64,000 bases of DNA from Patescibacteria group bacterium (lineage in GTDB: Bacteria; Patescibacteriota; Patescibacteriia; UBA10025; JAHIVO01). Location: NCBI GenBank assembly GCA_041660605.1, contig JBAZWB010000001.1, forward strand, positions 393,295 through 457,294. Reading direction: 5' to 3'. The position numbers and the translations under genes are program-made. Of the stretch, positions 3,122-52,061 are shown piece after piece. The notes below the pieces were generated by a model, which worked only from the letters and a program-made list of their open reading frames with translations, did not search any database and was not told the origin of the DNA. How positions within the stretch are numbered: the stretch's first letter is position 1; every line of letters starts with the position of its first letter.

Positions 3122-5503
3122 TTGATAAAATATTTTTATTATACTATGCCTAATCAAAAAAAGATTATGCCAAAGTTACTAGATACGAATACAAAAACAC
3201 AGGAGCAATTGAAAATAAAAATTTCCATCGCCGCCATGATGCTGGCAGCTGTTGGCTTGGGCTTTGCTTTTGGTATTATTCTTATTGACTTAGCATCAAA
3301 AAAAATACCCACGGTTAGCACCGGAAATTTTACCGTCAGTTTTGCCGCCAATGAATATAAGTTTTCAGAAATTGACAGCAAGGGAAATCAGACAGTGTCA
3401 ATGGTTGATTTTGAAAATCGCGGCCTACCCGGAGAACCAGATATGCCAATGAAAACATATTCCATACTCTTGCCTCCCGGAGCTCAATTTATTAAGGCGG
3501 ACATTATCTCAATGGAGAGCAGTCTAATAGATGGAAGTTATGTAATAAAAGAGGCGCCGACGCCTCAACCTATCATAGATTCGACAAGCGCGGATATACT
3601 ATACAAGGAGGCGGCAGAAATCCCGCCGAAGCAGGAAATTTATTCTTCAGACCAGCTTTACCCTGTGAATGTTATTGAAACAAAGCAAGCCGGGCAAATG
3701 CGAAAGTATAATATTCAAGAGATAACTTTTAATCCCTTTCAATATCAGCCGTTATCGAAAAAATTGACGTTTATTTCAAAAGTAAATCTTAGGATTACTT
3801 ATAATATTGGAGAGGCGCCAACCGCAAGCCGGCTTGCAGATACCGTTCTAGATGACTCGGTTAGAGAGTTAGCTTATAATTTTAATCAATTTGGAGATCA
3901 ATACGATACTAGCCTGGTCAATACGAAATCACCGGCAGAATTATACGATTATGTCATAATCGCTCCGCAAACAATGGCGTCATCTGCCGGGATGAATACG
4001 CTTGTACAGTATCGACAAAATCAGGGGCATAGTATTCATTTGGAAACAACTGAATATATAAGCTCAAATTATTCAGGTGCTGATCTTCCGGAAAAAATTC
4101 GAAATTATTTAATTTCACACTATCTTGATTGGGGAATAAAAAATGTGGCCCTTGTTGGTTCTAATCAGGTTATCCCTATGCGGGTTTGTGATGGGTACCT
4201 GCCTACCGATTATTACTACCAGGAGCTGACAAGTGTCTGGGATGGATCTCAAATGTATTGCGGATATCACGACTGGTATCCTGAAGTATTCGTCGGAAGA
4301 ATCCCTATTGATGATACCGCGCAATTTGCGCAATATATTGACCGTGTTATTACATATGAAAATACCACTGACCCTTACATCCGGAAAGCTTTACTCGCAG
4401 CAGGCATCTGGGAAACAAATAATGATGCCGCGCAAACAGCTGAAAATTTGCGGATCGGTTTGTTTCTCCCCGCTGGTTACCAAGCCGATAGATTATATGA
4501 AGAAACCGGAACGTGCCCGGCGACATTACTTCACGATGATGATGTTAGTCAGGTGAATGTTCTTGACAATTGGCAAAACGAACATTACGGCATAGTGTAT
4601 CTCGCTGCTCATGGCAATCCTGCTCGTTTATGTTCTAAACCCTGTCCGCAACCCGATCAGGGCTGCCAAACAACCTTTGTCAAAGATGATATATCGCAGT
4701 TAAATGGCGATTATCCCTCGGTAGTATTTAGCCTGGCGTGCAGTACCGCTGATGTGTCTGATCCTGGCAATCTCGCGTACAGTTTGGTAAGGCAAAAAGT
4801 TGCGTCATATGTGGGTGCTACAAAAGTGGCATTTTCTAGTGATCAAATCTATCAATTGTATTTTTCAAATTTACTGCAGCAGGAGCGACGAAATGCAGAA
4901 GCCCTGGCTTTAGCGAGGCTATCAGTGACGGAAAACTATAACGGACAATATCAAGCATTAAATTATAATTTATACTCCGAACCATTACTGAAAGTCAGAA
5001 CTTTTTGTGAGGACGGAACAGTCGGCGGCCAGTGCAGCGGGCAGCAGTATTGTGATAAAGGTCAGCTGGTCAGTGACTGCCGGCAGTGCGGTTTTACTTG
5101 TTCGGGTGGGCGGGTATGCGATATAGGAAGCGGTCAGTGCATTATGCCCCCTGCCTGTAATATTGATAGTGACTGCGCTGATAGCATTGCCTGCAACGTA
5201 GATCATTGTAATTTTTCAGGAACGATCTCGGCGAGTTGTTCGCACACCGGCGGAACCTGCTGCGCTAACGGTACGTTGCCCGGGCAATGCGACAGCGCGG
5301 GAGGGAGTTTCTGTACATCCAATCTTACCCTTGATGATAACAGATGCCCTATCTGCGGCTGTAAGCAGTTCTACAAGTGCAATCCCGGCAGCCCGAAAGG
5401 GACAGGGTCGTGCGTCCCGGATCCCACGACCTGCTGTCTGGAAGAAACTCCGACCTGCAAACTGCCCCTCTGCCCCTGGCGGCCCCTGAATACGGTAAAT
5501 TAA
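3122..5503 (+). CDS. Membrane-anchored clan-CD cysteine peptidase, gingipain (C25)-like, with a Cys-rich C-terminal domain of about 45 Cys
   Basis: N-terminal TM; propeptide-like region; caspase-like His-Gly (YLAAHGNP) and Ala-Cys (FSLACSTAD) dyad spacing; the last roughly 170 aa are extremely Cys-rich. Confidence 0.5.
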   Translation: MIKYFYYTMPNQKKIMPKLLDTNTKTQEQLKIKISIAAMMLAAVGLGFAFGIILIDLASKKIPTVSTGNFTVSFAANEYKFSEIDSKGNQTVSMVDFENRGLPGEPDMPMKTYSILLPPGAQFIKADIISMESSLIDGSYVIKEAPTPQPIIDSTSADILYKEAAEIPPKQEIYSSDQLYPVNVIETKQAGQMRKYNIQEITFNPFQYQPLSKKLTFISKVNLRITYNIGEAPTASRLADTVLDDSVRELAYNFNQFGDQYDTSLVNTKSPAELYDYVIIAPQTMASSAGMNTLVQYRQNQGHSIHLETTEYISSNYSGADLPEKIRNYLISHYLDWGIKNVALVGSNQVIPMRVCDGYLPTDYYYQELTSVWDGSQMYCGYHDWYPEVFVGRIPIDDTAQFAQYIDRVITYENTTDPYIRKALLAAGIWETNNDAAQTAENLRIGLFLPAGYQADRLYEETGTCPATLLHDDDVSQVNVLDNWQNEHYGIVYLAAHGNPARLCSKPCPQPDQGCQTTFVKDDISQLNGDYPSVVFSLACSTADVSDPGNLAYSLVRQKVASYVGATKVAFSSDQIYQLYFSNLLQQERRNAEALALARLSVTENYNGQYQALNYNLYSEPLLKVRTFCEDGTVGGQCSGQQYCDKGQLVSDCRQCGFTCSGGRVCDIGSGQCIMPPACNIDSDCADSIACNVDHCNFSGTISASCSHTGGTCCANGTLPGQCDSAGGSFCTSNLTLDDNRCPICGCKQFYKCNPGSPKGTGSCVPDPTTCCLEETPTCKLPLCPWRPLNTVN

Positions 5504-7445: not shown

Positions 7446-7784
7446 TTGGCCACTTTAACAACTGCCAGTAAGCACTTTTTTAATTGTTTTATGGATAATA
7501 AACCTCAAATACCATGGTGGCAGCCGGCAGTAACGATTTTTGCCGAGGTAACCGGCTGGATTGCCGTACCAATATTAATTGCGTTGTTTTTGGGTAAATA
7601 TCTGGATGAGAAGTACGGCACTGATCCCTGGTATTATCTGGGGCTGACGGCAGTTGCCTTTATTATTTCCAGCACCGGAATTGTCATTGTGGCAGGCAAA
7701 TACATCAGGCAGATAGAAAAGGAAAATAAGAATAAGAAAAATGAATCAGACAGCAAACAATATCATAACAATACAAAATTCTAG
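7446..7784 (+). CDS. atpZ: ATP synthase protein I (AtpZ/AtpI family), small membrane protein
   Basis: Sits immediately upstream of atpB; two TM helices; W/P-rich N-terminus typical of ATPase_gene1 family. Confidence 0.6.
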   Translation: MATLTTASKHFFNCFMDNKPQIPWWQPAVTIFAEVTGWIAVPILIALFLGKYLDEKYGTDPWYYLGLTAVAFIISSTGIVIVAGKYIRQIEKENKNKKNESDSKQYHNNTKF

Positions 7785-8652
7785 CGTTGGCGGGCACCAG
7801 TTGCTCGCGGTGGAAACAACCGGTGAGGAGAAGGCGGCAACCAACTCGGAAATTTCCCATGAACCGACGCTTTATGCGGAACCGGTTTTTTCCATAGGCA
7901 GCTTCCAGGTGACAAATTCTCTGCTAAATTCCTGGGTAGTGGTGGTGTTGCTGGTAATTTTTTCACTGGTCCTGAGAAAAAAAATAAAACGCATCCCGCG
8001 CGGCCTACAGAACGCGGTGGAAATAGTTATTGAAGGCGCGCTGAATATGGTTGATAGCGTGACTAGTGACCGAAAAAAATCTCAGAAAGTTTTCCCCTTT
8101 GTTTTCGCAATTTTTGTCTTTATCTTGTTGAATAACTGGCTGGGATTGATCCCGGGTATTGGTTCGATCGGTTTTCTAGAATCAGAAGCCGGGCACCAGG
8201 TTTTTATACCATTACTTCGTGGCGGTACGGCTGATTTAAACACTACGCTGGCGCTGGCGATATTCGCTGTTATTAGTTCAAATATCTTTGGCATTTTGAT
8301 GGTCGGTGTCTGGAAGCATTTCAATAAATTCGTGAATCTCAAAGCCCTGGTGCAGATCCCCCAGCGGATTACCAAAGAACCAGCAATAGTCATAGTCAAT
8401 CCCATTAAATTTTTCGTTGGGATAATTGAAATCATCGGGGAAATCGCCAAAGTCGCTTCACTGTCTTTCCGGTTGTTCGGCAACATCTTCGCCGGCGAGG
8501 TCTTGCTGGCCTCTATGGCAGCGCTCTTCGCCTTTGTCCTGCCTGTGCCTTTCATGTTTTTGGAGGTAATCGTCGGACTGATACAGGCGCTGATTTTCGC
8601 CATGCTGACGCTGGTTTATTATACGATCGCCTCAACGGCGGAGGAACATTAA
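7741..8652 (+). CDS. atpB: F0F1 ATP synthase subunit a
   Basis: NNWLGLIPG and FRLFGNIFAGEVLL signature motifs; true start uncertain because the ORF overlaps the atpZ end. Confidence 0.9.
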   Translation: MNQTANNIITIQNSSVGGHQLLAVETTGEEKAATNSEISHEPTLYAEPVFSIGSFQVTNSLLNSWVVVVLLVIFSLVLRKKIKRIPRGLQNAVEIVIEGALNMVDSVTSDRKKSQKVFPFVFAIFVFILLNNWLGLIPGIGSIGFLESEAGHQVFIPLLRGGTADLNTTLALAIFAVISSNIFGILMVGVWKHFNKFVNLKALVQIPQRITKEPAIVIVNPIKFFVGIIEIIGEIAKVASLSFRLFGNIFAGEVLLASMAALFAFVLPVPFMFLEVIVGLIQALIFAMLTLVYYTIASTAEEH

Positions 8653-8732
8653 AGGTTTGTAGGTTGTGGGTAGTAAGTTGTAGGTAGTAATCTTATTAAT
8701 AAATAATTAACGGTTCAAGATTGCCGACTTAA

Positions 8733-10168: not shown

Positions 10169-11701
10169 ATGTCCAATAAAGACTACATCATTGAACAGCT
10201 AAAAAAGCAGATTACCGATTTTAAAACAGCCACGGTCAAGGAGAAGGTGGGTACGGTTGAATCAATCGGTGACGGCATTGCCAGGATTTCCGGCTTGTCA
10301 GAAGCCATGGCCTCGGAAATGTTAGAATTTCCGGGAAATAAATTCGGCGTGGCTCTGAACCTGGACGAGGATTCCGTCGGCGCGATTATTCTGGGCAGCC
10401 AGGAAGGCATCAAAGAAGGGGATACGGTTAAAAGCACCGGCAGGATATTGGAAGTGCCGGTCGGCGAATCCCTGATCGGCCGGGTGGTAAATCCGCTGGG
10501 AGAGCCGATGGACGGCAAAGGCGAGATTAAAACCAAGACCTTCTATCCCGTAGAAAAAATCGCTCCGCGCGTCATTACCCGCGAATCCGTCGATACGCCT
10601 CTGCAGACCGGCATTAAAGCTATTGATTCCATGATCCCTATCGGCCGCGGACAGCGCGAATTGATCATCGGCGATCGCCAGACCGGGAAAACTGCTATTA
10701 CCATTGACGCCATCATAAATCAAAAAGGCAAAAATGTGACCTGTATTTACGTCGCGATCGGTCAGAAAGAATCAAAGATCGCCAAGATTGTCACCGAGCT
10801 GGAAAAATTCGGCGCTATGGACCACACGATTGTTGTCATTGCCGGCGCTTCTGATCCGGCTTCTCTGGCATTTATCGCACCATACGCCGGCTGCGCTATG
10901 GGAGAATATTTTGTGGACAAAGGCCAGGATGTGCTGGTAATTTATGACGATTTATCCAAACACGCCTGGGCATACCGGGAAATTTCCTTGTTACTGCGCC
11001 GACCGCCGGGCCGTGAAGCTTATCCTGGAGACGTTTTTTACCTGCACTCACGCTTGCTGGAACGGGCTGCCAAGCTGAATAAAAAATACGGCGGCGGGTC
11101 ATTAACTGCTTTGCCGATTATTGAAACCCAGGCCGGTGATATTTCCGCTTACATTCCCACCAACGTTATTTCCATTACTGACGGGCAGATTTACCTGGAG
11201 CCGGATTTATTTTACCAGGGGATCAGGCCAGCCTTGAATATCGGATTGTCAGTTTCCCGCGTGGGTTCAGATGCGCAGATAAAAGCCATGAAAAAAGTGG
11301 CCGGTAAATTGCGTCTAGATCTGGCTCAGTACCGCGAATTAGCCGCTTTTGCCCAGTTCGGCTCTGACCTGGATGAAGCGACACGCCAGCAGCTGGAACG
11401 TGGCAAGCGCCTGACGGAAATTCTGAAACAGGCGCAGTTTGAGCCGATGCCGGTGGAAAATCAGGTAGTAGTTCTATATGCCGCAGTCAACGGATTTTTG
11501 GATGACGTGCCGGTTGATAAAATCAAGAAATTTGAAACTGAATTGCATCAGCGCCTGAAAACATCGCATCAAGATTTACTTGACCTTATTCTGAAAGAGA
11601 AAGAAATAACTGAAGCCGTTGAAAAGAAATTAAAACAAGTCATTGAAGATTTTAAAAAAACTACGGATTATGTGGTGAAGGAAGAAGCAAGTAATAAGTA
11701 A
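10169..11701 (+). CDS. atpA: F0F1 ATP synthase subunit alpha
   Basis: GDRQTGKT Walker A; highly conserved alpha-subunit sequence. Confidence 0.95.
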
Positions 11702-11811
11702 TTGGTAATTAATGCTATTTAATATGCTCCGAGTGCACCTCTCTGTGGGTGCGCTCAAATCCAAAGAACGTGAGGATAATTAAGAATATATAATCCGATA
11801 AAAAACAAACG

Positions 11812-12788: not shown

Positions 12789-14198
<1,410 letters not shown>

Positions 14199-14242
14199 AA
14201 GGTAGTAAGTTGTAAGTAGCTATTAGAAATAAAAAAGATAAA

Positions 14243-14689
14243 ATGGCCAATAAAATAAATTTCGAAATTACCACGCCGGAAAGGGTTGTTTTTTCCGACC
14301 AGGTTGACGAGGTGGTTCTGCCGACGATGCAGGGAGAGATCGGCATTCTGCCGAATCATATCCCCCTGGTTTCTTTGCTGTCCGCCGGCGAGATCAGGAT
14401 TAAGAAAGGCAAGGAAGAATTTTTTATGGCTGTTTCCGGCGGGTTCATAGAAGTGCGGCCCGATAAGGTGGTGGTCCTGGCGGATACAGCCGAGAGAGCC
14501 GAGGAAATTGACGAGAAGCGGGCCGAGGAAGCGCGGCAGCGCGCTCAGGCGCTGGCTCATGAGAAACGCACTGATGCCAGGGAATTCGCCGCCATCACCG
14601 CCAAGATGGAAAAAGAACTAGCCAGGCTCAAAGTGGCCACCCGGCGCCGGCGCCGGAAAGAACCGCCGCTCCGGCCGCAGTCAGAATAA
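14243..14689 (+). CDS. atpC: F0F1 ATP synthase subunit epsilon with an Arg-rich C-terminal tail
   Basis: Epsilon beta-sandwich plus helical hairpin; tail RRRRRKEPPLRPQSE. Confidence 0.85.
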   Translation: MANKINFEITTPERVVFSDQVDEVVLPTMQGEIGILPNHIPLVSLLSAGEIRIKKGKEEFFMAVSGGFIEVRPDKVVVLADTAERAEEIDEKRAEEARQRAQALAHEKRTDAREFAAITAKMEKELARLKVATRRRRRKEPPLRPQSE

Positions 14690-17398: not shown

Positions 17399-19477
17399 AT
17401 GCTAAAGTTGTTAACTAACCTAGGTACTACGGTTCTCGTAGTAATTCTATTATCTGTAACGGCAATTGCAGGTGATACATGGCTGCTTACATTCCCGCTT
17501 GATGTACAACCGGATAGTTGGCCATGTAATTTCCAGTGTCATGACAATCGTCCCGGAGGAAATGACTACAGCTGTAATACAGGTACAAATGTATTAGCTG
17601 CAGAGGATGGATACGTTCATATTCACGACGATCCTGACGGTTATGGCACGTATCTCACGGAAGACATAGCCTATTATCAATTGTATTACGGGCATTTGTC
17701 GGAAGTATTAGTCAATGAGGGACAATTTGTTACCCAAGGAAGTGTGATTGCGAAAAGCGGGAGCACTGGTTGGTCCACGGGTCCACATCTTCATTTCGAA
17801 GTACGATCAAGCAATATGCCAATTGATCCGTATAATATTAATCACTGGCTCTGGGTTTCACCGCCACCATTCAATCCGGTAACTCTTTATTCACAGCTTG
17901 CATATTCTGGTACCTGCGTCGGTAAGTCCCACAGCAATACCCTAGTACTTCTACCGGGTTCTTCCGCAGAATGCTGGATTGATTTCAAGTGTAACCCGCC
18001 ATTCTATTGGTCAAGTAATGGGAATAGTTCGCATTATGTAGCACTGCATTCGGTAGCTAGTAACTGGACTGACATGGAAGACTCGCCGGTGATTACAGGC
18101 ACTACTAATTTGCTGGATGATGATGGTAGTACAGCGGATCCGAATGGTGTAGCTCGATTTAATTTCACCATAACTGCTCCACAGTCGCCCGGCACATATA
18201 CACTTCGTGCAAGAGTGTATCATCCACATTCAGGTACTTTTATCACAGGCACTGGTCCTGATGTTACATTTAATGTTCAGGTAGTCAGTCCACCGCAAGA
18301 AAACACCAGTTACTACCCTATTTCCGGTGACTTCAACGGTGACGGCCTGGCTGATGTGGGACTTTACGATCAGATAACCGGCAACTGGTACATAGCTTTG
18401 CACAGTTCGACTTCAAACCGCTTCATTCCACAAGCCGAACCCTGGCTCACTGGCTGGGGAACCGGCATCGGCAACTACTTGCCAACCAGTGGTGACGTTG
18501 ATGGTGATGGATTGTGGGATTTAATACTCTACCAGCCAGTCAATGGCCGGTGGGCAGTAGCCAAAAACTACGGCGGTTATTTCGCCCAGCTTAATGGAAC
18601 TTATATCCATGGCTGTTGGTATGAGAACTGGGGCACCGGCGAAGGAGTCTACTTTCCTGCAAGTGGTGATGTTGACGGTGACGGATTATGGGATGCCATA
18701 CTTTATCAGCCTGTTAACGGAAGATGGCCGGTAGCAAAGAACTACGGTGACCACTTCACCCAGATCAACGGGCCATATGCGCGCGGCTGTTGGTACGAGA
18801 ACTGGGGAACCGGCGTGGGTGTCTACCAGCCAGTCTCTGGAGATGTTGACGGTGACGGTTTATCTGACATTTTACTCTACCAGCCAGTCAATGGCCGGTG
18901 GGCAGTAGCCAAAAACTACGGCGGTTATTTCGCGCAATTGAACGGACCGTATGTTCGAGGATGTTGGCTGGCTAACTGGGGAACAGGCGTTGGAGTTTAC
19001 ATGCCCATCAGCGGTGACGTAGACAATGACGGCTTGACTGATATTCTGCTTTACGTTCCAAGTACCGGTAGATGGGCAGTTGCCAAGAACTATGGTGGCT
19101 ATTTTGCCCAGATCAATGGCCCTTATATTAATGGCTGCTGGCTGGTGAACTGGGGCATTCAGAACGAAGGTACCCCGAAAATCGCTACTCCAGAAACGGA
19201 GAATCCGCTTCCGGCAGACTTCACTCTTTCCCAAAACTATCCGAATCCATTCAATCCGGTCACGAATATCAGCTATTCATTACCGGTTGCTGCCGATGTC
19301 TGCCTGGAAATTTACAACGTCCTGGGGCAGAGAGTAGCCACGCTGGCAAATGAACGGCAGGTGGCTGGTGAGCACAGCATTCAGTGGGATGCTCATCAGT
19401 GTCCGTCCGGAATCTATTTCTACAGGTTAACAACAGATCAGGTTACTGAAACGAAAAAAATGATCATTCTGAAGTAA
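17399..19477 (+). CDS. Secreted M23 (LytM/lysostaphin-type) metallopeptidase with 5 FG-GAP-like repeats and a T9SS (Por) C-terminal sorting domain
   Basis: Signal peptide; HIHDDPD and GPHLHFEV M23 motifs; five SGDVDGDGLxD-type repeats; C-terminal QNYPNPFNPVTNISYSLP...LEIYNVLGQRVATL...SGIYFYRL sorting-tail signature; strong SD aaggaggg. Confidence 0.8.
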   Translation: MLKLLTNLGTTVLVVILLSVTAIAGDTWLLTFPLDVQPDSWPCNFQCHDNRPGGNDYSCNTGTNVLAAEDGYVHIHDDPDGYGTYLTEDIAYYQLYYGHLSEVLVNEGQFVTQGSVIAKSGSTGWSTGPHLHFEVRSSNMPIDPYNINHWLWVSPPPFNPVTLYSQLAYSGTCVGKSHSNTLVLLPGSSAECWIDFKCNPPFYWSSNGNSSHYVALHSVASNWTDMEDSPVITGTTNLLDDDGSTADPNGVARFNFTITAPQSPGTYTLRARVYHPHSGTFITGTGPDVTFNVQVVSPPQENTSYYPISGDFNGDGLADVGLYDQITGNWYIALHSSTSNRFIPQAEPWLTGWGTGIGNYLPTSGDVDGDGLWDLILYQPVNGRWAVAKNYGGYFAQLNGTYIHGCWYENWGTGEGVYFPASGDVDGDGLWDAILYQPVNGRWPVAKNYGDHFTQINGPYARGCWYENWGTGVGVYQPVSGDVDGDGLSDILLYQPVNGRWAVAKNYGGYFAQLNGPYVRGCWLANWGTGVGVYMPISGDVDNDGLTDILLYVPSTGRWAVAKNYGGYFAQINGPYINGCWLVNWGIQNEGTPKIATPETENPLPADFTLSQNYPNPFNPVTNISYSLPVAADVCLEIYNVLGQRVATLANERQVAGEHSIQWDAHQCPSGIYFYRLTTDQVTETKKMIILK
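18322..19190 (+). repeat. Intragenic tandem array of about 5 units of roughly 175 nt, with about 58-nt blocks identical between units
   Basis: ctctaccagccagtcaatggccggtgggcagtagccaaaaactacggcggttatttcgc occurs at about 18528 and again at about 18880. Confidence 0.7.
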
Positions 19478-21042: not shown

Positions 21043-24042
21043 ATGAATATCTCTGATAATTTAAATCTCGCGCAGAAAAAAGCCGTCCAGTTCGGGTCCG
21101 GCCCTCTTTTGATAGTAGCCGGCGCCGGTACCGGGAAAACCACCGTTATTACCCAGCGGCTGGCCTGGCTGATTCTGGAAAAGAAAATCGGCACGGATAA
21201 TATCCTGGCTCTGACTTTTACGGAAAAGGCGGCCTCGGAAATGGAGGAGCGGGTGGATGTGCTCATGCCCTATGGCTATGTGGATTTATGGGTTTCTACT
21301 TTTCATTCTTTTTGTGAAAGAATTCTAAAAGACAATGCCTTGGAGATAGGATTGCCGCCGGACTTCAAATTATTAAACGAAACAGACCAGGTTCTACTGG
21401 TACGGAGGAATTTTGACGCTTTTGATCTGGATTATTACCGGCCGCTGGGGAATCCCACTAAATTCGTCCAGGCCCTGGTCAAGCATTTTTCCCGGGCCAA
21501 GGACGAGAATGTGCAGCCAGAAGAATATTTAGAGTACGCTAAAGGCCTTCAGCTGGACCGGGATGACGATAAATTCGTAAAAAGCCGGGGCGAGGACGAC
21601 CAGGAGATTTCCGAGGAGCAGAGGATTATCGAGGTAGCCAACGCTTATCATGTTTACCAGCAGCTATTATTGGACAACAGCGCACTGGATTTTGGCGATT
21701 TGATTTTATATACCATAAAGCTTTTCAAAAGCCGGCCGAAGATACTGAGAAAATATCAGGACCAGTTTCAATATATTCTAGTTGATGAATTCCAGGATAC
21801 GAATTACGCCCAATATGAGCTGGTCAAAATGCTCTCTGCCCCGAAAAATAACCTGACGGTGGTGGGGGACGACGACCAGTCAATTTATAAATTCCGCGGC
21901 GCGGCTATTTCCAATATTTTGGAATTCAAAAAAGATTATCCTGATTCGCATGAAATCGTCCTGACCGACAACTACCGTTCGCGACAGAACATCCTGGATT
22001 TATCGTATAAATTTATTAAGCAGAACGATCCTAACCGTCTGGAGTATCAGCTTTCTAAGGGTCGTATTGACCCCAAGGGCGCGCCGTTGAAAAGTAAGAT
22101 TTCTAAAAAGTTGAAAGCGCATACAACCGAACCAGGAGCTATATTGCATCTGCATTTCAGGTCATATTTGGAGGAAGCATCGGGCGTCGTGAAAAAGATA
22201 GTTGAGCTTAAGAAAAAAGATAAAAAGTTATTATGGAGCGATTTTGCAATATTAGTCAGAGCTAACGCCAATGCTGCTGAGTTTATAACGGCTTTGGCGC
22301 GATATGACATACCATACCAGTTTTTGGCTTCAAAAGGGCTTTATTCACAGCCGGAAGTGATGGACGTGATTGCTTACCTGAAAATGCTGGATAATTACCA
22401 TGAGTCAGCGGCCATGTGGCGGGTTTTGAATTTAAATCACTGGAATCTGCCGCACCAAGATATAATGACTTTGTCTTATTACGCCCGGCGCAAAAACGTT
22501 TCCCTGCATGAAGCAGCGGAAAAAGCCAGATTAATCCCTGGTGTCAGGCCGGAAATGACCAAAGCGCTGGATAAAATACTTTCTATGATAAAAAACCACA
22601 CCCAGCTGACCAGAGGTAAAGGCGTTTTAGCAGTAGCTTTGCGGTTTATGGAAGATTCAGGGTATTTAAAAAATATTACCAATAAAGATAGCCAGGAGAA
22701 TCTGGAAAAGATAATTCACCTAAACCAATTTTTCCGCAAGATAGAACAGTTTGAGTCTTTGCATGAAGATAAATCAGTAAAAAATTTCATTTCCGAACTG
22801 GAACAGGCGCAGGAAGCAGGGGAGGAGGGTTCAATGCAGCAACCGATAGAAGAGGGACCGGAAGCCGTCAAATTAATGACAGTGCATGGCGCCAAAGGCT
22901 TGGAATTTCATTATGCGTTTTTAGTAAATTTAGTGGATAAGCGTTTCCCGACTATCGAACGCAAGGAGCAGATAGAACTGCCGGATAAATTAATCAAAGA
23001 AATCATTCCGGAAGGGGACATCCATCTGCAGGAAGAACGCCGGCTTTTTTACGTAGGCGTGACGCGGGCTAAAACCGGGGTGTTCTTCACTTCAGCCGAC
23101 GATTACGGCGGCAACCGCAAGAAAAAACCGTCACGCTTTTTAATAGAATTGGGTTTAGTCACCAAGCGGGGAGCAGAAGAGTTGGATCCGGCAGAGCGGT
23201 TGCGGCCGGCACCCGCCACCCAGCGAGAAATTAAAGAGCTGGAATACCTGCAAAAAGCCATTCCGGAGAAGGCCAGCTTTACCCAGATAAAAGCCTTCCA
23301 GACCTGCCCCAAGCAGTATAAGTTCGCACATATCCTGCGCGTACCGGTGGAAGGCAAGCATACTTTCAGTTTCGGCAAATCCATGCACAATACTTTGTAC
23401 CAGTTCTTTAAACAGATAAAAGAAGGCGGTTCAGCGGAGCAGGCGGATTTATTCGAGCAGAAAAAATCTAAGTCAAAAAAAATCAGCGTTAGCTTGGAGC
23501 AGCTTTTGGAAATTTATCAGCGTGAGTGGATCGATGAGTGGTACCTGTCCAAGGAGCATATGGATGAATATTTCCATAAAGGCAAGGAAACTCTGGGCAA
23601 TTTTTACCAATCGCACCAGGGCAAGTTTTCCAAGCCCTTGCATCTGGAAAAAGGCTTTAATATAAAATTAGGCAATTACTCGCTCAGAGGCGTGATCGAC
23701 AGGATTGATGAAATTAAAAAAGGCGAAGTGGAAATTATTGATTATAAGACCGGGCAGTTCCCTAAAAACGGTAAGCTTTCACCTGACGAAAAAGAGCAGC
23801 TGATGATTTATGATCTGGCGGTCAGGGAAGTCATGAAACTGAAACCGGTGGTTTTAAGTTATTATTATCTGGAAGCCAATAAAAAATTGTCATTTAGTTC
23901 CGGCGAAGGGGAGTTGGTGAAAATTAAAGATAAACTGATTGAATTAATCAAAGGCATCAGGGCCAGCGATTTCAGAGCCACACCGGGTTTTTGGTGCCAG
24001 TCGTGCGATTTCCGGGAGATCTGCGAGGATCGGTGGAGGTAA
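21043..24042 (+). CDS. UvrD/PcrA-type SF1 helicase fused to a C-terminal PD-(D/E)xK nuclease with an Fe-S-like Cys cluster (AddA-like)
   Basis: GAGTGKT Walker A; VDEFQDTN motif II; C-terminal IDRIDE...IDYKTG nuclease motifs; CQSCDFREIC. Confidence 0.85.
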   Translation: MNISDNLNLAQKKAVQFGSGPLLIVAGAGTGKTTVITQRLAWLILEKKIGTDNILALTFTEKAASEMEERVDVLMPYGYVDLWVSTFHSFCERILKDNALEIGLPPDFKLLNETDQVLLVRRNFDAFDLDYYRPLGNPTKFVQALVKHFSRAKDENVQPEEYLEYAKGLQLDRDDDKFVKSRGEDDQEISEEQRIIEVANAYHVYQQLLLDNSALDFGDLILYTIKLFKSRPKILRKYQDQFQYILVDEFQDTNYAQYELVKMLSAPKNNLTVVGDDDQSIYKFRGAAISNILEFKKDYPDSHEIVLTDNYRSRQNILDLSYKFIKQNDPNRLEYQLSKGRIDPKGAPLKSKISKKLKAHTTEPGAILHLHFRSYLEEASGVVKKIVELKKKDKKLLWSDFAILVRANANAAEFITALARYDIPYQFLASKGLYSQPEVMDVIAYLKMLDNYHESAAMWRVLNLNHWNLPHQDIMTLSYYARRKNVSLHEAAEKARLIPGVRPEMTKALDKILSMIKNHTQLTRGKGVLAVALRFMEDSGYLKNITNKDSQENLEKIIHLNQFFRKIEQFESLHEDKSVKNFISELEQAQEAGEEGSMQQPIEEGPEAVKLMTVHGAKGLEFHYAFLVNLVDKRFPTIERKEQIELPDKLIKEIIPEGDIHLQEERRLFYVGVTRAKTGVFFTSADDYGGNRKKKPSRFLIELGLVTKRGAEELDPAERLRPAPATQREIKELEYLQKAIPEKASFTQIKAFQTCPKQYKFAHILRVPVEGKHTFSFGKSMHNTLYQFFKQIKEGGSAEQADLFEQKKSKSKKISVSLEQLLEIYQREWIDEWYLSKEHMDEYFHKGKETLGNFYQSHQGKFSKPLHLEKGFNIKLGNYSLRGVIDRIDEIKKGEVEIIDYKTGQFPKNGKLSPDEKEQLMIYDLAVREVMKLKPVVLSYYYLEANKKLSFSSGEGELVKIKDKLIELIKGIRASDFRATPGFWCQSCDFREICEDRWR

Positions 24043-24195
24043 TTACTAAGGTCATAGGTTGTAAGTTTTAAGAAAAAAGTATAGATTTAAGTTTAAGGGC
24101 ATAAGTCACTTTTATTAAATCCTAAAACTTAAGACTTACTTCCTTGCGTTCTTCTTTAAACCTACAACTTGTAACTTTTCTCAATAACATTAAAA

Positions 24196-24992: not shown

Positions 24993-26003
24993 ATGAAAGA
25001 CAAATTATTACAATTAAAGAATAAGGCCATCAGCCTGCTAGAAAAAATATCCAGCCAGGAAGAATTGAAGCAGTTTGAAATTAATTTCTTCGGCCGTAAG
25101 GGCGAGCTGGCCAATCTGATGAAAAACCTGAAAGATCTGCCGCAAAATGAACGTCCGGCAGCAGGGCAAATGGCTAATCGGGTTAAATCAGAAATACTGC
25201 AGGCTTTTCAGGAACGCAGTTCACGGTTCGCATCAGCGGAAAAGATAAATGTTTCTAAAATAGAAAAAACCTGGCCGGCTCCGAAGAAAAATATCGGCCA
25301 TCTGCATCCCTTAACCCAATTTATAAAAAAAGTAGAAGATATATTTATCTCCATGGGATTTGAGATTGTTGATGGCCCGGAAGCGGAGACGGTTAGAAAT
25401 AATTTTGATTTATTAAATATCCCAAAAAACCACCCGGCGCGCGACGCCTGGGACACTTACTATCTAGAAGGCGGCTGGCTGCTGCGGACCCACACTTCGC
25501 CGGTACAGCTGCACGCCATGGAAAAAAGAAAGCCACCAGTGCGATTGATAGCGCCCGGCCGCGCGTTTCGCCATGAAGCCACGGATGCTTCCCATGAAAC
25601 GACTTTTTACCAGTGCGAAGGGCTGGTCATTGACCAGTGCATTTCCGTGGCTAATTTAATAAATACGCTGGAGGAATTTCTAAAAGCCATTTTTGGTAAT
25701 AAAGTTAAAATACGCGTGCGGCCGGAATTTTATCCGTTTGTCGAGCCGGGTCTGGATGTGGATATGCAGTGCCTGATTTGCGGCGGCAAGGGTTGTTCGG
25801 TTTGCAAGCAGAGAGGGTGGTTGGAGATGCTGGGTTCGGGCATGGTACATCCGGTGGTTCTGGAAAATATGGGCGTTGATCCGGAAAAATATTCAGGCTA
25901 CGCTTTTGGCCTCGGCATTGATCGCCTGATGATGCTGTATCACGGCATTAATGATATTCGGCTGTCGTATTCGGGGGACTTGAGATTTATTGAGCAGTTT
26001 TAG
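24993..26003 (+). CDS. pheS: Phenylalanine--tRNA ligase alpha subunit, with a Cys4 insertion (CLICGGKGCSVCKQ)
   Basis: Class II aaRS motifs (FRHEATDASHETTFYQCEG, GLGIDRL). Confidence 0.9.
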   Translation: MKDKLLQLKNKAISLLEKISSQEELKQFEINFFGRKGELANLMKNLKDLPQNERPAAGQMANRVKSEILQAFQERSSRFASAEKINVSKIEKTWPAPKKNIGHLHPLTQFIKKVEDIFISMGFEIVDGPEAETVRNNFDLLNIPKNHPARDAWDTYYLEGGWLLRTHTSPVQLHAMEKRKPPVRLIAPGRAFRHEATDASHETTFYQCEGLVIDQCISVANLINTLEEFLKAIFGNKVKIRVRPEFYPFVEPGLDVDMQCLICGGKGCSVCKQRGWLEMLGSGMVHPVVLENMGVDPEKYSGYAFGLGIDRLMMLYHGINDIRLSYSGDLRFIEQF

Positions 26004-26055
26004 TTTAGTAGGTGGTGGGTAGTAAGTTGTGAGTAGTAGGTAGGAGGTGGCTAGT
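26004..26055 (+). repeat. GT-rich dispersed repeat (GGGTAGTAAGTTGTGAGTAGTAGGTAGG), forward copy
   Basis: Similar 20-nt motif at 8656, 14199 and 24048, and inverted at 26439. Confidence 0.55.
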
Positions 26056-26078
26056 TAAATAAAGATTAATAATTACAC

Positions 26079-26438
26079 ATGGCAAAAAGTTTTGAAAATT
26101 TAACGATTTGGAAGGATGGAATAAGCTTATCAGGTTTAATTTATTTAGAAACAAAAAAATTTCCAAAAGAAGAATTATATGGTTTAACTTCTCAGATTAG
26201 AAGGGCAATAATTTCAGTACCATCCAATATTGCCGAAGGAGCCGGCAGATCATCACAGAAAGAATTTATAAGATTCATAAATATATCTTTAGGTTCGTTA
26301 AATGAGGTGGAGAGTTTATTGCATGTTGCCTTGGAGCTTAAATATTTAGAAATTAATGATTTCAATATTATAAAAGAAAGGGTAATAAAGTTAGGTGCTT
26401 CAATAGGCGCTTTTAAAAAGCATTTAGCGCAAGTTTAA
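26079..26438 (+). CDS. Four-helix-bundle protein (23S rRNA intervening-sequence protein family), inserted between pheS and pheT
   Basis: Characteristic sequence (LTSQIRRAIISVPSNIAEG...SLGSLNEVESLL). Confidence 0.85.
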   Translation: MAKSFENLTIWKDGISLSGLIYLETKKFPKEELYGLTSQIRRAIISVPSNIAEGAGRSSQKEFIRFINISLGSLNEVESLLHVALELKYLEINDFNIIKERVIKLGASIGAFKKHLAQV

Positions 26439-26472
26439 CAAACTACTTACTACTAACTACCTACAACTTACC
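26439..26472 (-). repeat. GT-rich dispersed repeat, inverted copy (reverse complement ggtaagttgtaggtagttagtagtaagtag)
   Basis: With the 26004 copy it forms an inverted pair flanking the four-helix-bundle gene. Confidence 0.55.
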
Positions 26473-28812
26473 ATGTATCTTCCCCTTAACTGGCTAAAAG
26501 AATTCATAAAATTCAAGGAAACGCCTGAAAAAGTCGCGGAGATTTTTACGCTGGCCGGCTTTGAAGTGGAAAAAATAGAATATTGGGGACGCGATTTAGC
26601 CGGCGTCATCGTCGGTGAAATAAAAACCATTGTTTCGCACGCCGAGGCTGACAAGCTGGTGGTCTGCAAGGTTGAAGTGGGGCGCAAGCAGCTTTTGAAT
26701 ATTGTCTGCGGCGCCCGCAATATAAAACCAGGACACAAGGTTCCAGTCGCCCTGGTTGGCGTGAAACTGCCCAATGGCATGAAAATAGAACGGCGCCGCA
26801 TCCGAGGCGTGGATTCCGAAGGCATGCTCTGCGCTGAGGATGAGCTGGGCCTGGGCGAAGACCATTCAGGCATCATGATATTGGATAAACAGGCGAAAGT
26901 CGGGCAGAAGCTGAACAAGGTTTTAGGGCTGGACGATATTGTCCTGGATATCACAGTTCCGGCTAACCGTGTTGATTGCTTATCAGTAATTGGCCTGGCT
27001 AAGGAATTCGCCGCGCAGACCGGCGAGGCTTTAAATATTAAAAAAACCGTTTTAACCGAGAACAAAAAGTATAATATCAAAAAGATAATCAAAGTTAAAA
27101 TCACTGATACGGATTTATGCCCGAAATATACCGCGCGGGTCGTTAAAAACGTCAAAGTCCGTCCGTCGCCGGTCTGGCTGCAGTCGCGCTTGCGGGTTTG
27201 CGGCATTAAATCCATTAACAATATAGTTGACGCTACCAATTACGTGATGCTGGAGCGCGGGCAGCCATTGCATGCTTTTGATCTGGCCAATATCGCCGGC
27301 AAGCAGATAATCGTCAGAGCTGCCGGCAAAGATTCAAAGTTTGCCACACTGGACGGTGAAGAGCGTTTGCTGGGCAGCCAGATGCTGGTCATCGCTGATG
27401 CCAAACAGCCAATCGCTGTGGCCGGTGTGATGGGCGGTAGGAATTCAGAAATAACCAGGCAAACCAAGGAGATTGTCATTGAGTCAGCGCTTTTCAAACC
27501 ACTGTCAATCCGCCAGACCCGTCAGAAACTGGGGATTGTCACGGAGGCTTCCAATAGATTTGAAAAAGGCCTATGGTGGGATTTGCCGGAGTGGGCGGCT
27601 GATCAGGCGGCGCAGTTGATATCAGAGGTGGCCGGCGGGGAAATTGTCACTGGCATGATTAACGTTTCCAGGCAAAAAGAGAACAAGCCGACTGTTATAA
27701 AATTTAATTTAAAATATTTAAACCGTTTGATCGGCAGAAATTTCACTTTAGCTGAAGCAATCAAGTCTCTGGAAAAATTAAACTGCAAAATCGCTAAAGC
27801 CGGAATTGACGAAATTAAAGTTACCGTACCTTCCTGGCGGCAGGATCTGAATATACCCGCTGATTTGGTTGAGGAAGTCGGTAGATTATATGGATGGAAC
27901 AATTTAAAAACAACGCCGGTATTTGCCGGGTTAAAACCAATTCAGCTGCCTGACGCATTGAAATTCCAAGAAAAAATTCACAATATTCTGGCCGCTGCCG
28001 GTTTGAACGAAGTTTATAATTATTCTTTTTATAGTAAGAGGATGATAGAGCAATTTGGAATGCAGAAAGCCGGGCATTATTTAGTACAGAATCCGCTGAA
28101 TCCCGAGCAGGAGTATATGCGGACTGCGCTCCTGCCTTGGCTTCAGAGTAATGTTTTGAAAAACTATCAAACCCGTGAAGAAATAAAAATATTTGAGATA
28201 GGAACGGTTTTCCCAAAATCCGGCACTGGTTTGCCAAACGAAAAAACCATGCTGGGTGCAATAATATACAAGAAAGGCAAAGCTGAGGGCAAGAAAAGCG
28301 CGCATTGGGAGATGATGTCGGTTTTGAATTCCGTTTTGTCCGGCGTGGGATTTTCTGAGGAGGAAGCATGTTATCAGGATAAGGATAATGGCGCGGTGGA
28401 GATCAAAATAAAAGGCAGTAAAGTAGGGCAATATTCCTGGGTTTTACCAGAGAGCAACAAACTGGGCAGTCCGCCGGTTTATTTTGAGCTGGATTTGCAG
28501 GCATTGCTCGGGCTGTCAAAAAAATTAAGCACCTTCCGGCCGATTTCCGATTATCCGGCCGTTACCCGAGATTTAACATTTACCAACATCAGTCAGGCGG
28601 ATTTTGCCGAGCTCAGCGGGTTAATAAGAAAGGCGAGTCCATTAGTGAAAAAAGTTGAAGCCAAGGATTTGTACATTACCGGCGACAGCCTGACAGTGCG
28701 CGTAATTTATCAGTCTTCCGAACGCACCCTGACAGCCAAGGAGATTGACATTCTTGAGAATGAAATTATTAAAAATTTGTCAGCCGCATTTGATTTAAGA
28801 ATAAAAAAGTAA
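26473..28812 (+). CDS. pheT: Phenylalanine--tRNA ligase beta subunit
   Basis: N-terminal tRNA-binding (Myf) domain and the B3/4, B5 and anticodon-binding domain order over 779 aa. Confidence 0.9.
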   Translation: MYLPLNWLKEFIKFKETPEKVAEIFTLAGFEVEKIEYWGRDLAGVIVGEIKTIVSHAEADKLVVCKVEVGRKQLLNIVCGARNIKPGHKVPVALVGVKLPNGMKIERRRIRGVDSEGMLCAEDELGLGEDHSGIMILDKQAKVGQKLNKVLGLDDIVLDITVPANRVDCLSVIGLAKEFAAQTGEALNIKKTVLTENKKYNIKKIIKVKITDTDLCPKYTARVVKNVKVRPSPVWLQSRLRVCGIKSINNIVDATNYVMLERGQPLHAFDLANIAGKQIIVRAAGKDSKFATLDGEERLLGSQMLVIADAKQPIAVAGVMGGRNSEITRQTKEIVIESALFKPLSIRQTRQKLGIVTEASNRFEKGLWWDLPEWAADQAAQLISEVAGGEIVTGMINVSRQKENKPTVIKFNLKYLNRLIGRNFTLAEAIKSLEKLNCKIAKAGIDEIKVTVPSWRQDLNIPADLVEEVGRLYGWNNLKTTPVFAGLKPIQLPDALKFQEKIHNILAAAGLNEVYNYSFYSKRMIEQFGMQKAGHYLVQNPLNPEQEYMRTALLPWLQSNVLKNYQTREEIKIFEIGTVFPKSGTGLPNEKTMLGAIIYKKGKAEGKKSAHWEMMSVLNSVLSGVGFSEEEACYQDKDNGAVEIKIKGSKVGQYSWVLPESNKLGSPPVYFELDLQALLGLSKKLSTFRPISDYPAVTRDLTFTNISQADFAELSGLIRKASPLVKKVEAKDLYITGDSLTVRVIYQSSERTLTAKEIDILENEIIKNLSAAFDLRIKK

Positions 28813-31822: not shown

Positions 31823-31905
31823 TCATCAATTCATAATTTAAAATGCATAATGTATAATTGTTAGAATTATACATTATAAATTATTCATTATATATTTTAA
31901 AAAAA

Positions 31906-34087: not shown

Positions 34088-34166
34088 TTCAAAATGTATA
34101 ATTTATAATTAAATATAGCCAGTAGTTGCTATCTCATTATATATTAATCATTATACATTAATTAAT

Positions 34167-50178: not shown

Positions 50179-51894
50179 TTATTTTTTTTGGTCAATTTCA
50201 AGCCGCACTCTCTTAATAAAGCTCAAAAGGGAGATTTTTTTCAATGCTTTTTGTCCGCGTATCCTGATATTCAATGATTTGCTTTTCATTTCTTTATCTC
50301 CAATCACCAGCATATAGGGTACTTTCTGTTTTTCCGCCAGACGTATTTTATAGCCGACTGTTTCATTAGCATCGTCCAGCTCAGAGCGGAAGCCCTCCTC
50401 GACAAACTGGTTATGAATTTTTTTTGAGAATGCGAGATGTGCTTTTCCTACGGTAATTACCGCTATTTGCACAGGTGAGAGCCAGATAGGAAAATTACCC
50501 GCGTAGTGCTCAGTAATAATACCGATGAACCGTTCGAACGTCCCCATGATCGCCCGATGGATGATGACCGGCGTCTGTTTGTCGCCATGTTCATCAGTAT
50601 AGGACAATTCGAAGCGCTGGGGGATCTGGAAATCGAGCTGGATAGTGGCCATCTGCCAGTCACGGCCGAGCGAATCCTTGATCCAGACGTCTATCTTCGG
50701 CCCGTAAAAAGCGCCATCACCGGCATTGACGCGGTAGGTGAACTTACTCTTTTTGAGCGCTTGTTCTAGGGCCTGTTCAGCAAAGCGCCAGGTTTTTTCC
50801 TCGCCGAGGTGGTCGGTGGGCATGGTGGAGAGCACCATTTGCGGATTGAACTTGAAGACAGCGTAGAATTTCTTTACGAGTTTAATGACCCTATTGATTT
50901 CCGACTCGATCTGGTTAGGGCGGCAGTAGATGTGTGCGTCGTCCATAGTCAGCTGCCTGACGCGGAACAGCCCACCGAGCGCGCCGGAGATTTCGTTACG
51001 GTGCAGCCGGCCGATTTCCCCAAGCCGCAGCGGCAAGTCCCGGTAGCTCCGTAGTTTGGAATTGTAGATGTAGGTTGATTCAGGACAATTCATCGGTTTC
51101 AGGGCGAAGTCCTGCTTTTCAACTGACAGTTTGAACATGTCTTTTGAGTAGTGCTGCCAGTGTCCGGATTTTTCCCACAGCTCTTTTTTTACCATAATCG
51201 GCGTGGAAATTTCCTGGTAACCGCTACTGTCATGGAGTTCGCGCCAGTAGCGCTCGAGAATTTTCACCATGACCATGCCTTTCGGATGCCAGAACGGAGC
51301 ACCGGGTGCCACGTCGTGGAAGCTGAAAAGATCGAGTTCGGTACCGATTTTACGGTGGTCGCGTTTTTTGAGCTCTTCCTGTAGGGCCAGGTAGTCTTCC
51401 AATTCTTTTTTAGAGGCAAAAGCCACGCCGTAAATGCGCTGCAGCATTTTATTCTTTTCATCCCCGCGCCAGTAAGCGCCGGCGATTTTCGTCAGTTTGA
51501 AAGCATCAGCCGGTATTTCTTTAGTTGAATTAACATGGGGACCAGCGCAGAGGTCAATGAAATTTCCGGATTGGTAAAATGTTATAGCCTGCTTGTCTTT
51601 TACCAACTCGTCAATCAGTTCAAGTTTAAAGGGCTGGCCTTTTGCCAATTCTTTAGCTTCCTCAGCGCTTTTCTCCAGTTTTGTAAATTTAATATTTTGG
51701 CTAATCAGCTTTTTCACTCGTTTTTCAATTTTCGGCAAGTCTTGCGGAGTCAGGGGACGAGGCAGGTCAAAATCATAATAAAAGCCATTTTCAATTACCG
51801 GACCGATGGCCAGCTTGGCCTCGGGAAAAAATTGTTTGACTGCTTCGGCCATCAGGTGTGACAGGGAATGGCGGGTTTTGGTGAGTTGGTTCAT
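50179..51894 (-). CDS. thrS: Threonine--tRNA ligase lacking the N-terminal TGS domain
   Basis: Begins in the SAD/editing region (HSLSHLMAEAV...GFYYDF); class II motifs; HRAIMGTFERFIGIITEHYAGNFPIWLSP. Confidence 0.9.
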   Translation of the reverse strand: MNQLTKTRHSLSHLMAEAVKQFFPEAKLAIGPVIENGFYYDFDLPRPLTPQDLPKIEKRVKKLISQNIKFTKLEKSAEEAKELAKGQPFKLELIDELVKDKQAITFYQSGNFIDLCAGPHVNSTKEIPADAFKLTKIAGAYWRGDEKNKMLQRIYGVAFASKKELEDYLALQEELKKRDHRKIGTELDLFSFHDVAPGAPFWHPKGMVMVKILERYWRELHDSSGYQEISTPIMVKKELWEKSGHWQHYSKDMFKLSVEKQDFALKPMNCPESTYIYNSKLRSYRDLPLRLGEIGRLHRNEISGALGGLFRVRQLTMDDAHIYCRPNQIESEINRVIKLVKKFYAVFKFNPQMVLSTMPTDHLGEEKTWRFAEQALEQALKKSKFTYRVNAGDGAFYGPKIDVWIKDSLGRDWQMATIQLDFQIPQRFELSYTDEHGDKQTPVIIHRAIMGTFERFIGIITEHYAGNFPIWLSPVQIAVITVGKAHLAFSKKIHNQFVEEGFRSELDDANETVGYKIRLAEKQKVPYMLVIGDKEMKSKSLNIRIRGQKALKKISLLSFIKRVRLEIDQKK

Positions 51895-52061
51895 AAATGT
51901 ATAATTAATGATTGATAATTCATAAGTTTTTGATATAGGAACGTTCGCGCGAACGAGCGAATGTAAATTTTTAAAGATTTTATTTCCTGGTGAACAACAT
52001 TTTCAAGATTTTGTTCACGTTCCATAGTTTTTTAGTTTATAATGTATAATATAATTACTTT

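Follow-up and report, generated by a model that had tools for sequence, protein, structure and literature searches.

In the 64,000-nt stretch of Patescibacteria DNA analyzed here ("the window"), which derives from a metagenome-assembled genome (MAG), the genes for the two subunits of phenylalanyl-tRNA synthetase, pheS and pheT, are separated by a gene for a four-helix-bundle (4HB) protein of the kind found in 23S rRNA intervening sequences (IVSs). This gene stands between short tandem arrays in inverted orientation, the arms. What are the gene and its arms, given that in Patescibacteria a non-housekeeping gene is here gained and lost inside an essential operon of a minimal genome? We found that a bracket of inverted arrays marks most genes of this family in many phyla, and that the arms differ from locus to locus and are complementary within a locus. 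For the window itself, we give even chances to the overall account in which 26004-26472 is an IVS-type gene cassette, with the pheS stop codon and the pheT start codon as its exact boundaries, whose arms would pair in read-through RNA.

The cassette between pheS and pheT

The enclosed gene is the only PF05635-type gene in the window. Its product matches PF05635 ("23S rRNA-intervening sequence protein"; E 1e-34, 119.4 bits against a cut-off of 33.8) and TIGR02436 (113.5 bits, cut-off 24), and its closest solved relative is XCC0516 (PDB 2GSC, 5 chains; E 6e-23). It is the sole open reading frame (ORF) of the cassette and has no known catalytic domain in Pfam. The insert is foreign in composition: the GC content of the 4HB gene is ~30% compared with ~46-50% for the flanking genes, and GC at third codon positions (GC3) is 0.23 compared with 0.51 in pheS. 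The protein belongs to the same homologous fold family as Avd, the accessory protein of diversity-generating retroelements (DGRs) (homology discussed in PMC10053308), but unlike avd genes it has no adjacent reverse transcriptase or template/variable repeat and its neighbors are housekeeping genes. Identity with Avd itself was ruled out because the score is below the cut-off (NF033474 E 1e-7, 32 bits against an equivalog cut-off of 80; bAvd Pfam E 5e-5) and the neighborhood consists of a helicase gene, dciA, pheS, pheT and gyrB.

Both arms (Table 1) have a 14-nt (2 x 7) periodicity in the repeat search and by Tandem Repeats Finder (TRF), which reports tandem repeats at 26006-26038 and 26437-26472 and a further one at 8659-8690. 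A C-free run extends over 25996-26050 and a G-free run over 26434-26474. In the repeat search, 26022-26059 pairs with 26434-26471 (38 nt, 76% complementary) and 26008-26037 with 26442-26471 (30 nt, 80% complementary). The initial annotation, made from the sequence of the window, had described the 4HB gene as enclosed by inverted copies of one motif, and this is borne out by the complementarity and the periodicity of the arms. When folded as RNA, the cassette is predicted to be closed by a stem of 26010-26061 with 26434-26486 (minimum free energy [MFE] -114.5 kcal/mol, z -3.2), which is present in the MFE and centroid folds and spans the pheT start region. A promoter and terminator scan of the cassette gave nothing above chance, and no promoter-like site scored in 26060-26078.

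This plan resembles the ORF-bearing 23S IVSs of Coxiella burnetii and Leptospira, which combine a PF05635 protein, an inverted-repeat stem and heptamers upstream of the ORF. In Coxiella, the IVS carries an S23p ORF, its terminal inverted repeats fold into a 28-bp stem in which RNase III cuts, and 2-3 tandem GACAGAT heptamers, in a copy number that differs from strain to strain, are found immediately upstream of the ORF; RNase III excises the IVS from the RNA, and the ends are not religated (PMC4990558). As with the 23S IVS, which is regarded as a selfish insert (PMC4990558), the host unit is highly conserved and highly transcribed. The window shares the terminal inverted repeats with a long stem around the insert and the tandem heptameric repeats adjoining the S23p ORF. 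Unlike the 23S IVS, the cassette lies between protein-coding cistrons and not in helix 25 or 45 of a 23S rRNA gene, and its ORF, in contrast to the decaying one of Coxiella, is intact and conserved. Rfam found no rRNA within the window and no family matching the arms, the hairpin or anything else there, apart from one chance miRNA-precursor match (E 0.58).

The closest homologues of the 4HB protein (55-68% identity) are also encoded at pheS|pheT, in five Patescibacteria lineages (loci L017, L020, L107, L109 and L110), and a further one (L112) upstream of a cca gene. Each of these genes has a G/T/A-rich array upstream and the complementary array downstream, with units that are related but diverged (GTAGNNN / GTTGNNN) and 3' arms that end 0-12 nt before the downstream ATG. 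The initial annotation had named related genomes with the gene but without flanking repeats as evidence that would count against its reading; the related genomes instead carry diverged repeats. In L109, pheS (745-1491) lacks the usual stop and runs ~10 codons into the 5' arm, to a TAG within the array.

Two syntenic relatives have neither the 4HB gene nor a repeat at this junction, and their pheS-pheT gaps are 2 nt (L118, PheS 66% identical) and 8 nt (L119, PheS 61%). Because these empty junctions are also free of arms, the insert is the whole arm-gene-arm unit and the arms belong to the cassette. The closest relative, L117 (PheS 73%), has no 4HB gene and carries an unrelated AT-rich 144-aa ORF at 2531-2965, without a Pfam match and without arms. 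Perhaps pheS|pheT is a hotspot of small insertions.

Identity in PheS does not correlate with identity in the 4HB protein: the window and L020 share 44% in PheS and 68% in the 4HB protein, the window and L017 69% and 62%. The GC3 of the 4HB gene stays at 0.23-0.28 while that of the host pheS ranges over 0.25-0.56. Taken together, the uncoupled identities and the constant GC3 hint at horizontal movement, an argument that is not decisive because the 4HB family is highly conserved across phyla. Transfer by homologous recombination of the flanks was ruled out, since the pheS 3' and pheT 5' ends show no extra similarity in cassette-bearing partners.

Is the cassette then a transposon? The initial annotation had suggested a small mobile cassette with terminal inverted repeats. 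The discrete insert stands, given the empty sites in L118 and L119 and the foreign GC3. The terminal-inverted-repeat transposon fails because arm sequences differ between cassettes, no target-site duplication is visible when the cassette borders are compared with the two empty junctions, and the cassette holds no transposase. Like MITEs (miniature inverted-repeat transposable elements) and repetitive extragenic palindromic (REP)-type repeats, the units are small, dispersed, intergenic and hairpin-forming, with cargo-less copies beside a gene-carrying version. Unlike MITEs, their ends are not conserved across copies, their arms are internally periodic, and they have neither a target-site duplication nor a transposase of their own, though a factor from elsewhere in the genome may act in trans; conserved terminal repeats among copies and target-site duplication, which mark terminal-inverted-repeat transposons and MITEs, are both missing.

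A less conventional DNA-level element would use the inverted arrays for insertion and excision, either as a hairpin or cruciform recognized in trans or by insertion into a pre-existing heptamer-hairpin loop, and cargo-less hairpins would then be MITE-like derivatives. The precise presence and absence at pheS|pheT, the failure of 4HB identity to track PheS identity and the low GC of the gene irrespective of host (GC3 as above; GC below the rest of the locus in 66/69 loci) speak for such an element, as do cargo-less inverted pairs in the window and in loci L009 and L032 and the occurrence of cassettes in viral contigs and plasmids. We nevertheless consider it unlikely, since the arm sequence is unconserved between cassettes, there is no recombinase or transposase in the cassette and no target-site duplication, the empty junctions contain no pre-existing hairpin, and the adjoining pheS and pheT ends lack the extra similarity that would indicate homologous recombination. 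In addition, the consistent position of the G-rich arm, upstream in the sense strand, and the shared orientation with operons suggest constraints at the level of transcription.

Flanking arrays across the 4HB family

The first examples outside Patescibacteria, from Sediminicola (Flavobacteriia) and an Ignavibacteriaceae MAG, had the same plan with entirely different units. For a survey, an alignment of 14 family members retrieved 80 metagenome loci, of which 71 had both flanks; together with 50 viral-contig loci, they are the best matches to this 4HB subfamily and not all of PF05635. Flank complementarity was scored by taking the 120 nt on each side of the ORF and finding their best Watson-Crick match without gaps. 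RNA duplex energies of the flanks were tried as a score and rejected: they discriminate poorly, as low-complexity arms that are G-rich in one locus and C-rich in another pair as well. Ungapped Watson-Crick scoring was adopted for this reason.

Among the 71 cognate flank pairs, 77% reached a score of at least 10 and 58% a score of at least 12. For 1000 non-cognate pairs, in which the upstream flank of one locus was set against the downstream flank of another, these values were 4.6% and 1.1%, and for 237 pairs of segments that lay 360 nt apart in other parts of these loci they were 5.9% and 0.4%. Among the remaining 94 genes in these loci, a score of 12 was reached once, by a second PF05635 gene. 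The loci are largely independent, because their proteins form 73 clusters at 70% identity. The viral-contig set, which is independent, contains 41 distinct cassettes with a median score of 17, and 73% score at least 12. The initial annotation had raised the question whether other four-helix-bundle genes are flanked by the same repeats; most of those surveyed have flanking arrays, with a unit sequence that differs between loci.

Arms also occur in complete plasmids of cultured organisms, in four of the six examined (Nostoc punctiforme, Trichormus variabilis, Riemerella anatipestifer and Picosynechococcus PCC 7003). Calothrix sp. PCC 7716 has no arms, and pGamma of Nostoc sp. PCC 7120 has a downstream heptamer array only, which adjoins an ISL3 transposase gene. 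In Picosynechococcus sp. PCC 7003 (L124, 695-1051), the cassette has GAGGAGATAAG / CTTATCTCCT-type arms and lies at cas10/cmr2|cmr3 of a type III-B operon.

In the metagenome loci, the arm period is 7 in 30/41 and 8 in 9/41, and arrays of period 7 or 8 make up 16.7% of 4HB flank bases compared with 1.9% for the rest of the non-coding DNA and 0.3% for coding DNA of the same contigs. The arms abut the neighboring stop and start codons: the 5' arm begins a median of 2 nt past the upstream stop (n=51) and the 3' arm ends a median of 10 nt before the downstream start (n=33). The G-rich arm is the 5' one (G>C in 37/41 loci). The cassettes are co-oriented in operons (neighboring genes co-oriented in 103/134, with short gaps) and AT-richer than their hosts. 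An explanation of the 7- or 8-nt unit by stops in all three frames was rejected as a general rule; by eye, only about half of the sampled 5'-arm units hold a stop codon. None of the 80 metagenome loci lies in rRNA by Rfam. In L095, an armed 4HB cassette (419-802) lies between tRNA genes at 187-260 and 834-906, inside a stable-RNA cluster.

Could these arrays be neutral simple-sequence repeats (SSRs) that arise by slippage in any spacer, so that their association with the gene is incidental? Heptamer repeats are the most over-represented class of long SSRs in many bacteria (Mrazek 2007 as reviewed in PMC4679880), and the arms in the window, being head-to-tail 7-nt units in intergenic DNA, have the form of such repeats. 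TRF finds many period-7/14 arrays in the intergenic DNA of the window, and arm copy numbers are unequal and variable. Against slippage, complementarity is specific to cognate flank pairs, the arrays are ~9 times as dense as in the remaining non-coding DNA of those contigs, the flanks of other genes lack arms, and the placement against stop and start codons is precise. Neutral slippage is already disfavored, and we regard it as very improbable.

Another way to obtain arms of this polarity would be templated addition, in which an activity of the reverse-transcriptase or telomerase-like kind, together with the Avd-like protein, writes the arrays onto both 3' break ends. This would explain why the G-rich strands point 5' to 3' into the gene from both sides, with the G-rich arm 5' in nearly all loci, and why the same unit occurs at several sites of one contig. 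The homology of the family to Avd, a reverse-transcriptase cofactor, would also fit, as would the arms of L046 (1115-1462), which are TTTAGGG / CCCTAAA, the plant-type telomere unit, although this is probably a coincidence. However, no reverse transcriptase adjoins any cassette examined, and the match of the window protein to DGR Avd is far below the equivalog cut-off (32 bits against 80). We find this account barely plausible.

Arrays without the gene

The motif of the arms also occurs in the window apart from the 4HB gene. A search with GGTAGTAAGTTGTRRGTAGT, allowing up to 3 mismatches, gave 6 matches (Table 1) compared with 0.00 expected from 100 dinucleotide-preserving shuffles, and a shorter core gave the same result. 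The sense copies are C-free GT-rich tracts that begin 1-5 nt past the stops of atpB (8650-8652), atpD (14196-14198) and pheS (26001-26003), and the inverted copy is a G-free tract that terminates at the pheT ATG (26473). Thus, the motif search and the Pfam gene identities confirm what the initial annotation had claimed, namely, that the motif lies directly 3' of these three stops, is linked to gene ends, and is repeated in inverted form directly before pheT. The inverted GT-rich pair that it had reported after the helicase gene is also present, though weaker: 24048-24092 and 24134-24178 form 45-nt arms that are 71% complementary around a 41-nt center with an inner hairpin (fold z -1.9; no Rfam family). 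The orthologous helicase-dciA spacer of L017 has no GT-rich hairpin.

Table 1. Coordinates of the cassette, related repeats and genes in the window, and of PDDEXK_3 genes in other loci
Feature	Location	Strand	Basis or description
5' arm	26004-26059	+	C-free G/T-rich array of ~7-nt units with 14-nt super-period; directly after pheS stop
AT-rich leader	26060-26078	+	between 5' arm and 4HB start codon
4HB protein gene, 119 aa	26079-26438	+	PF05635 / TIGR02436, S23p / Avd-like family
3' arm	26434-26472	+	G-free A/C-rich array, reverse complement of 5' arm units; ends at pheT ATG
GGTAGTAAGTTGTRRGTAGT matches	8655-8674, 8669-8688, 14201-14220, 26018-26037	+	motif search
GGTAGTAAGTTGTRRGTAGT matches, inverted	26442-26461, 26456-26475	-	motif search
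Solo GT-rich array	8653-8690	+	directly 3' of atpB stop; same unit family as cassette arm; no complementary partner nearby
Solo GT-rich array	14199-14220	+	directly 3' of atpD stop, 22 nt before atpC; no partner
"Empty" hairpin	24048-24178	+	after UvrD-like helicase gene; degenerate GT-rich / AC-rich outer arms
atpB	7741-8652		Pfam
atpD	12804-14198		Pfam
atpC	14243-14689		Pfam
UvrD/PD-(D/E)XK helicase gene	21043-24042		Pfam
pheS (phenylalanyl-tRNA synthetase alpha)	24993-26003	+	Pfam tRNA-synt_2d (E 6e-91), Phe_tRNA-synt_N
pheT (phenylalanyl-tRNA synthetase beta)	26473-28812	+	Pfam B3_4, B5, tRNA_bind, FDX-ACB
PDDEXK_3 gene, L126	489-863		
PDDEXK_3 gene, L127	501-875		
PDDEXK_3 gene, L130	474-863		
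PDDEXK_3 gene, L033	827-1204		
PDDEXK_3 gene, L128			
PDDEXK_3 gene, L129			

The solo arrays after atpB and atpD are nearly identical to the 5' arm of the cassette. Their alignment beyond the repeat into the cassette leader is suggestive but weak, and the sequence there is AT-rich. The solo arrays and the helicase hairpin are cargo-less members of the cassette's repeat family, perhaps remnants or free arrays. A short heptamer array, AAGTAAT AAGTAAT TGGTAAT, straddles the atpA stop codon at 11689-11714; with the atpB and atpD copies, this makes three atp operon junctions with GT/A-rich 7-nt arrays.

The same is seen outside the window. In six loci (L032, L033, L057, L060, L077 and L087), the unit of the cassette recurs elsewhere in the same contig. 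In L032 (5.3 kb), GTGAATA/TTCACTA arrays occupy six places (among them 1451-1545, 2436-2893, 3630-3717, 4972-5000 and 5153-5183), which include a cargo-less hairpin, the 4HB cassette and sites directly upstream of duplicated ABC-ATPase 5' ends; one array lies inside an ATPase coding region. When the exact 19-mer of the window motif was scanned over 185,579 species genomes, it was found in 14, always inside GT-rich heptamer tracts. The hosts are Bacteroidota, a cyanobacterium, Ignavibacterium, a Desulfuromonadales MAG, a Pseudomonadales MAG, another Patescibacteria MAG and a 571-bp Nocardioides contig. No 4HB gene lies within the fetched ~8 kb at any of the 14 loci, one of which (L009) is a cargo-less inverted pair. 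Because the 19-mer occurs in several phyla without a nearby 4HB gene, the motif is specific neither to the source genome nor to the 4HB gene. Thus, 4HB genes nearly always carry such arrays, and arrays also exist alone.

The solo copies after atpB and atpD could be 3' untranslated region (UTR) or protein-binding sites, as the initial annotation had considered, or cassette remnants. Extended to all arrays, the former idea makes the heptamers protein-binding sites, with complementarity secondary and the solo copies as further regulatory sites in 3' or intercistronic UTRs. Candidate binders would be the putatively pentameric Avd-like 4HB protein itself or an RNA-binding protein of the S1, Csp, CsrA or RRM type. 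The near-identity of the solo copies to the 5' arm and the recurrence of same-unit arrays on the six contigs named above would fit, intergenic TAACTGA repeats beside start codons have been proposed as such sites (PMC4679880), and Avd relatives bind nucleic acid in DGRs (PMC10053308). On the other hand, two 4HB cassettes on one contig (L029) use different units, the exact 19-mer is found in 14 genomes away from any 4HB gene, PDDEXK_3 genes, whose products have an unrelated fold, carry arms of the same kind (see below), and binding alone leaves the complementarity of the arms within a locus unexplained. In our judgment, binding as the primary function is distinctly unlikely.

Role of the arms and a second cargo

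The most likely role of the arms, we infer, would be to form a long stem in the read-through operon RNA that allows the insert to be tolerated. In a read-through pheS-pheT transcript, the two arms would pair into an imperfect ~45-bp stem, the base of which would bring the pheS stop and the pheT start together. By analogy with the ORF-bearing 23S IVS, the stem would probably be cut by RNase III. Alternatively or additionally, ribosomes terminating on pheS may melt the stem base. By either route, the flanking cistrons would stay expressed, pheT despite a 470-nt insert, and the insert would be tolerated in an essential operon. RNase III cuts intercistronic hairpins of polycistronic mRNAs, for example in the early region of phage T7. 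Like these, the long intercistronic stem would be cut to leave separately translatable mRNAs; unlike these, it would enclose a whole 360-nt gene. As a speculation, the G-rich-arm-first rule might arise because a C-rich, G-poor first arm would stay unpaired for ~400 nt and resemble a Rho loading site.

Several observations weigh against an RNA stem as the general function. The sense and antisense duplex energies of the flanks are equal, and G.U-type and A.C-type arm mismatches are equally common (86 vs 76, p = 0.48), a comparison confounded by register ambiguity in periodic arrays. Solo arrays cannot form a stem. About a quarter to two fifths of the cassettes have weak or no arms at the chosen threshold, and because the surveyed loci are best matches to one subfamily, generality for all PF05635 is not proven. 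Finally, in many viral-contig cassettes (L131-L180, by eye; examples are L161, L138, L148, L154, L162 and L172) a TAnnTTTG-like element occurs ~20-25 nt before the ATG, and we take it to resemble the Bacteroidota -7 promoter box. Its position between the 5' arm and the ORF suggests a putative internal promoter, transcripts from which would lack the 5' arm. Given the strand-neutral tests and the promoter-like elements, an action of the arms at the DNA level, in gain and loss, is a serious rival to the RNA stem; the mismatch spectrum, being strand-symmetric, suits DNA and RNA equally.

A second type of cargo bears on what the arms serve. Genes of the GxxExxY / PF13366 PDDEXK_3 family have the same plan in 4/6 cases, in that they lie between housekeeping genes in the same orientation, with inverted short tandem repeats on both sides (arm example, CACAGAGG / CCTCTGTG). 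Their host junctions are radA|FAD protein, ade|manC and fabD|fabG. A search of viral contigs with a single protein found no PDDEXK_3 relatives. Because PDDEXK_3 genes carry the same plan, the arms appear to serve the cassette and not a particular protein.

How do the arms relate to heptamer repeats already described? Cyanobacterial short tandemly repeated repetitive (STRR) sequences are intergenic heptamer SSRs. Like STRR, TAACTGA and GGGAATC repeats, the arms have 7-nt units in short intergenic arrays near stop or start codons, with a lineage-specific unit family; unlike them, they form complementary pairs that bracket one gene family. TAACTGA repeats lie in intergenic DNA beside start codons in Beggiatoaceae, Cyanobacteria and Bacteroidetes, with function unknown (PMC4679880), and the 3' arm of our locus L063 is a TAACTGA array. 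The GGGAATC repeats of Xanthomonas include convergent inverted pairs (70-75 cases), again of unknown function, and the supplement of the same paper lists a GGGAATC array 6 nt after bccP that overlaps the annotated XCC0516 start, without comment on the gene family (PMC4692102). This XCC0516 is the protein of PDB 2GSC. Neither PMC4679880 nor PMC4692102 mentions S23 or helix-bundle proteins, and a full-text literature search found no paper that links heptamer repeats to PF05635 genes. As a signature of the gene family, the bracket is general and apparently undescribed.

We tentatively propose, with less than even confidence, that cassettes of PF05635 and apparently PDDEXK_3 / GxxExxY genes with inverted heptamer arrays make up one widespread, unrecognized class of operon-embedded selfish cassettes in bacteria and on their phages and plasmids. 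The 23S IVS would be a special case that landed in rRNA, and intergenic heptamer repeats (STRR, TAACTGA, GGGAATC and the GT-rich motif of the window) would be arms and cargo-less footprints. If true, this would (i) account for the over-representation of heptamers among long simple repeats in bacterial intergenic DNA, (ii) say what sporadic rRNA intervening sequences are and whence they come, and (iii) explain why genes for a "four helix bundle protein" lie in their thousands, in the same orientation, between genes for subunits in conserved operons, for example at pheS|pheT, cmr2|cmr3, in sugar-nucleotide operons and apparently at accB|XCC0516. The bracket, a complementary pair of G-rich and C-rich arrays abutting a stop and a start codon, is a simple signature to search for.

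Three further repeats of the window lie outside these subjects. Two adjoining period-7 arrays (CTAGTGA x3.7 and ATTAGAA x5) at 186-282 stand directly 5' of a TatD-family gene (287-1120). A tandem repeat of 174/348 nt (71-73% matches) at 18454-19155 lies within a long ORF (17399-19477). The motif TGTATAAT / ATTATACA is dispersed over the window in AT-rich intergenic hairpins and repeats, at 31847-31877, 34091-34162, 51893-51920 and 52024-52057, and looks like an extended -10 promoter element.

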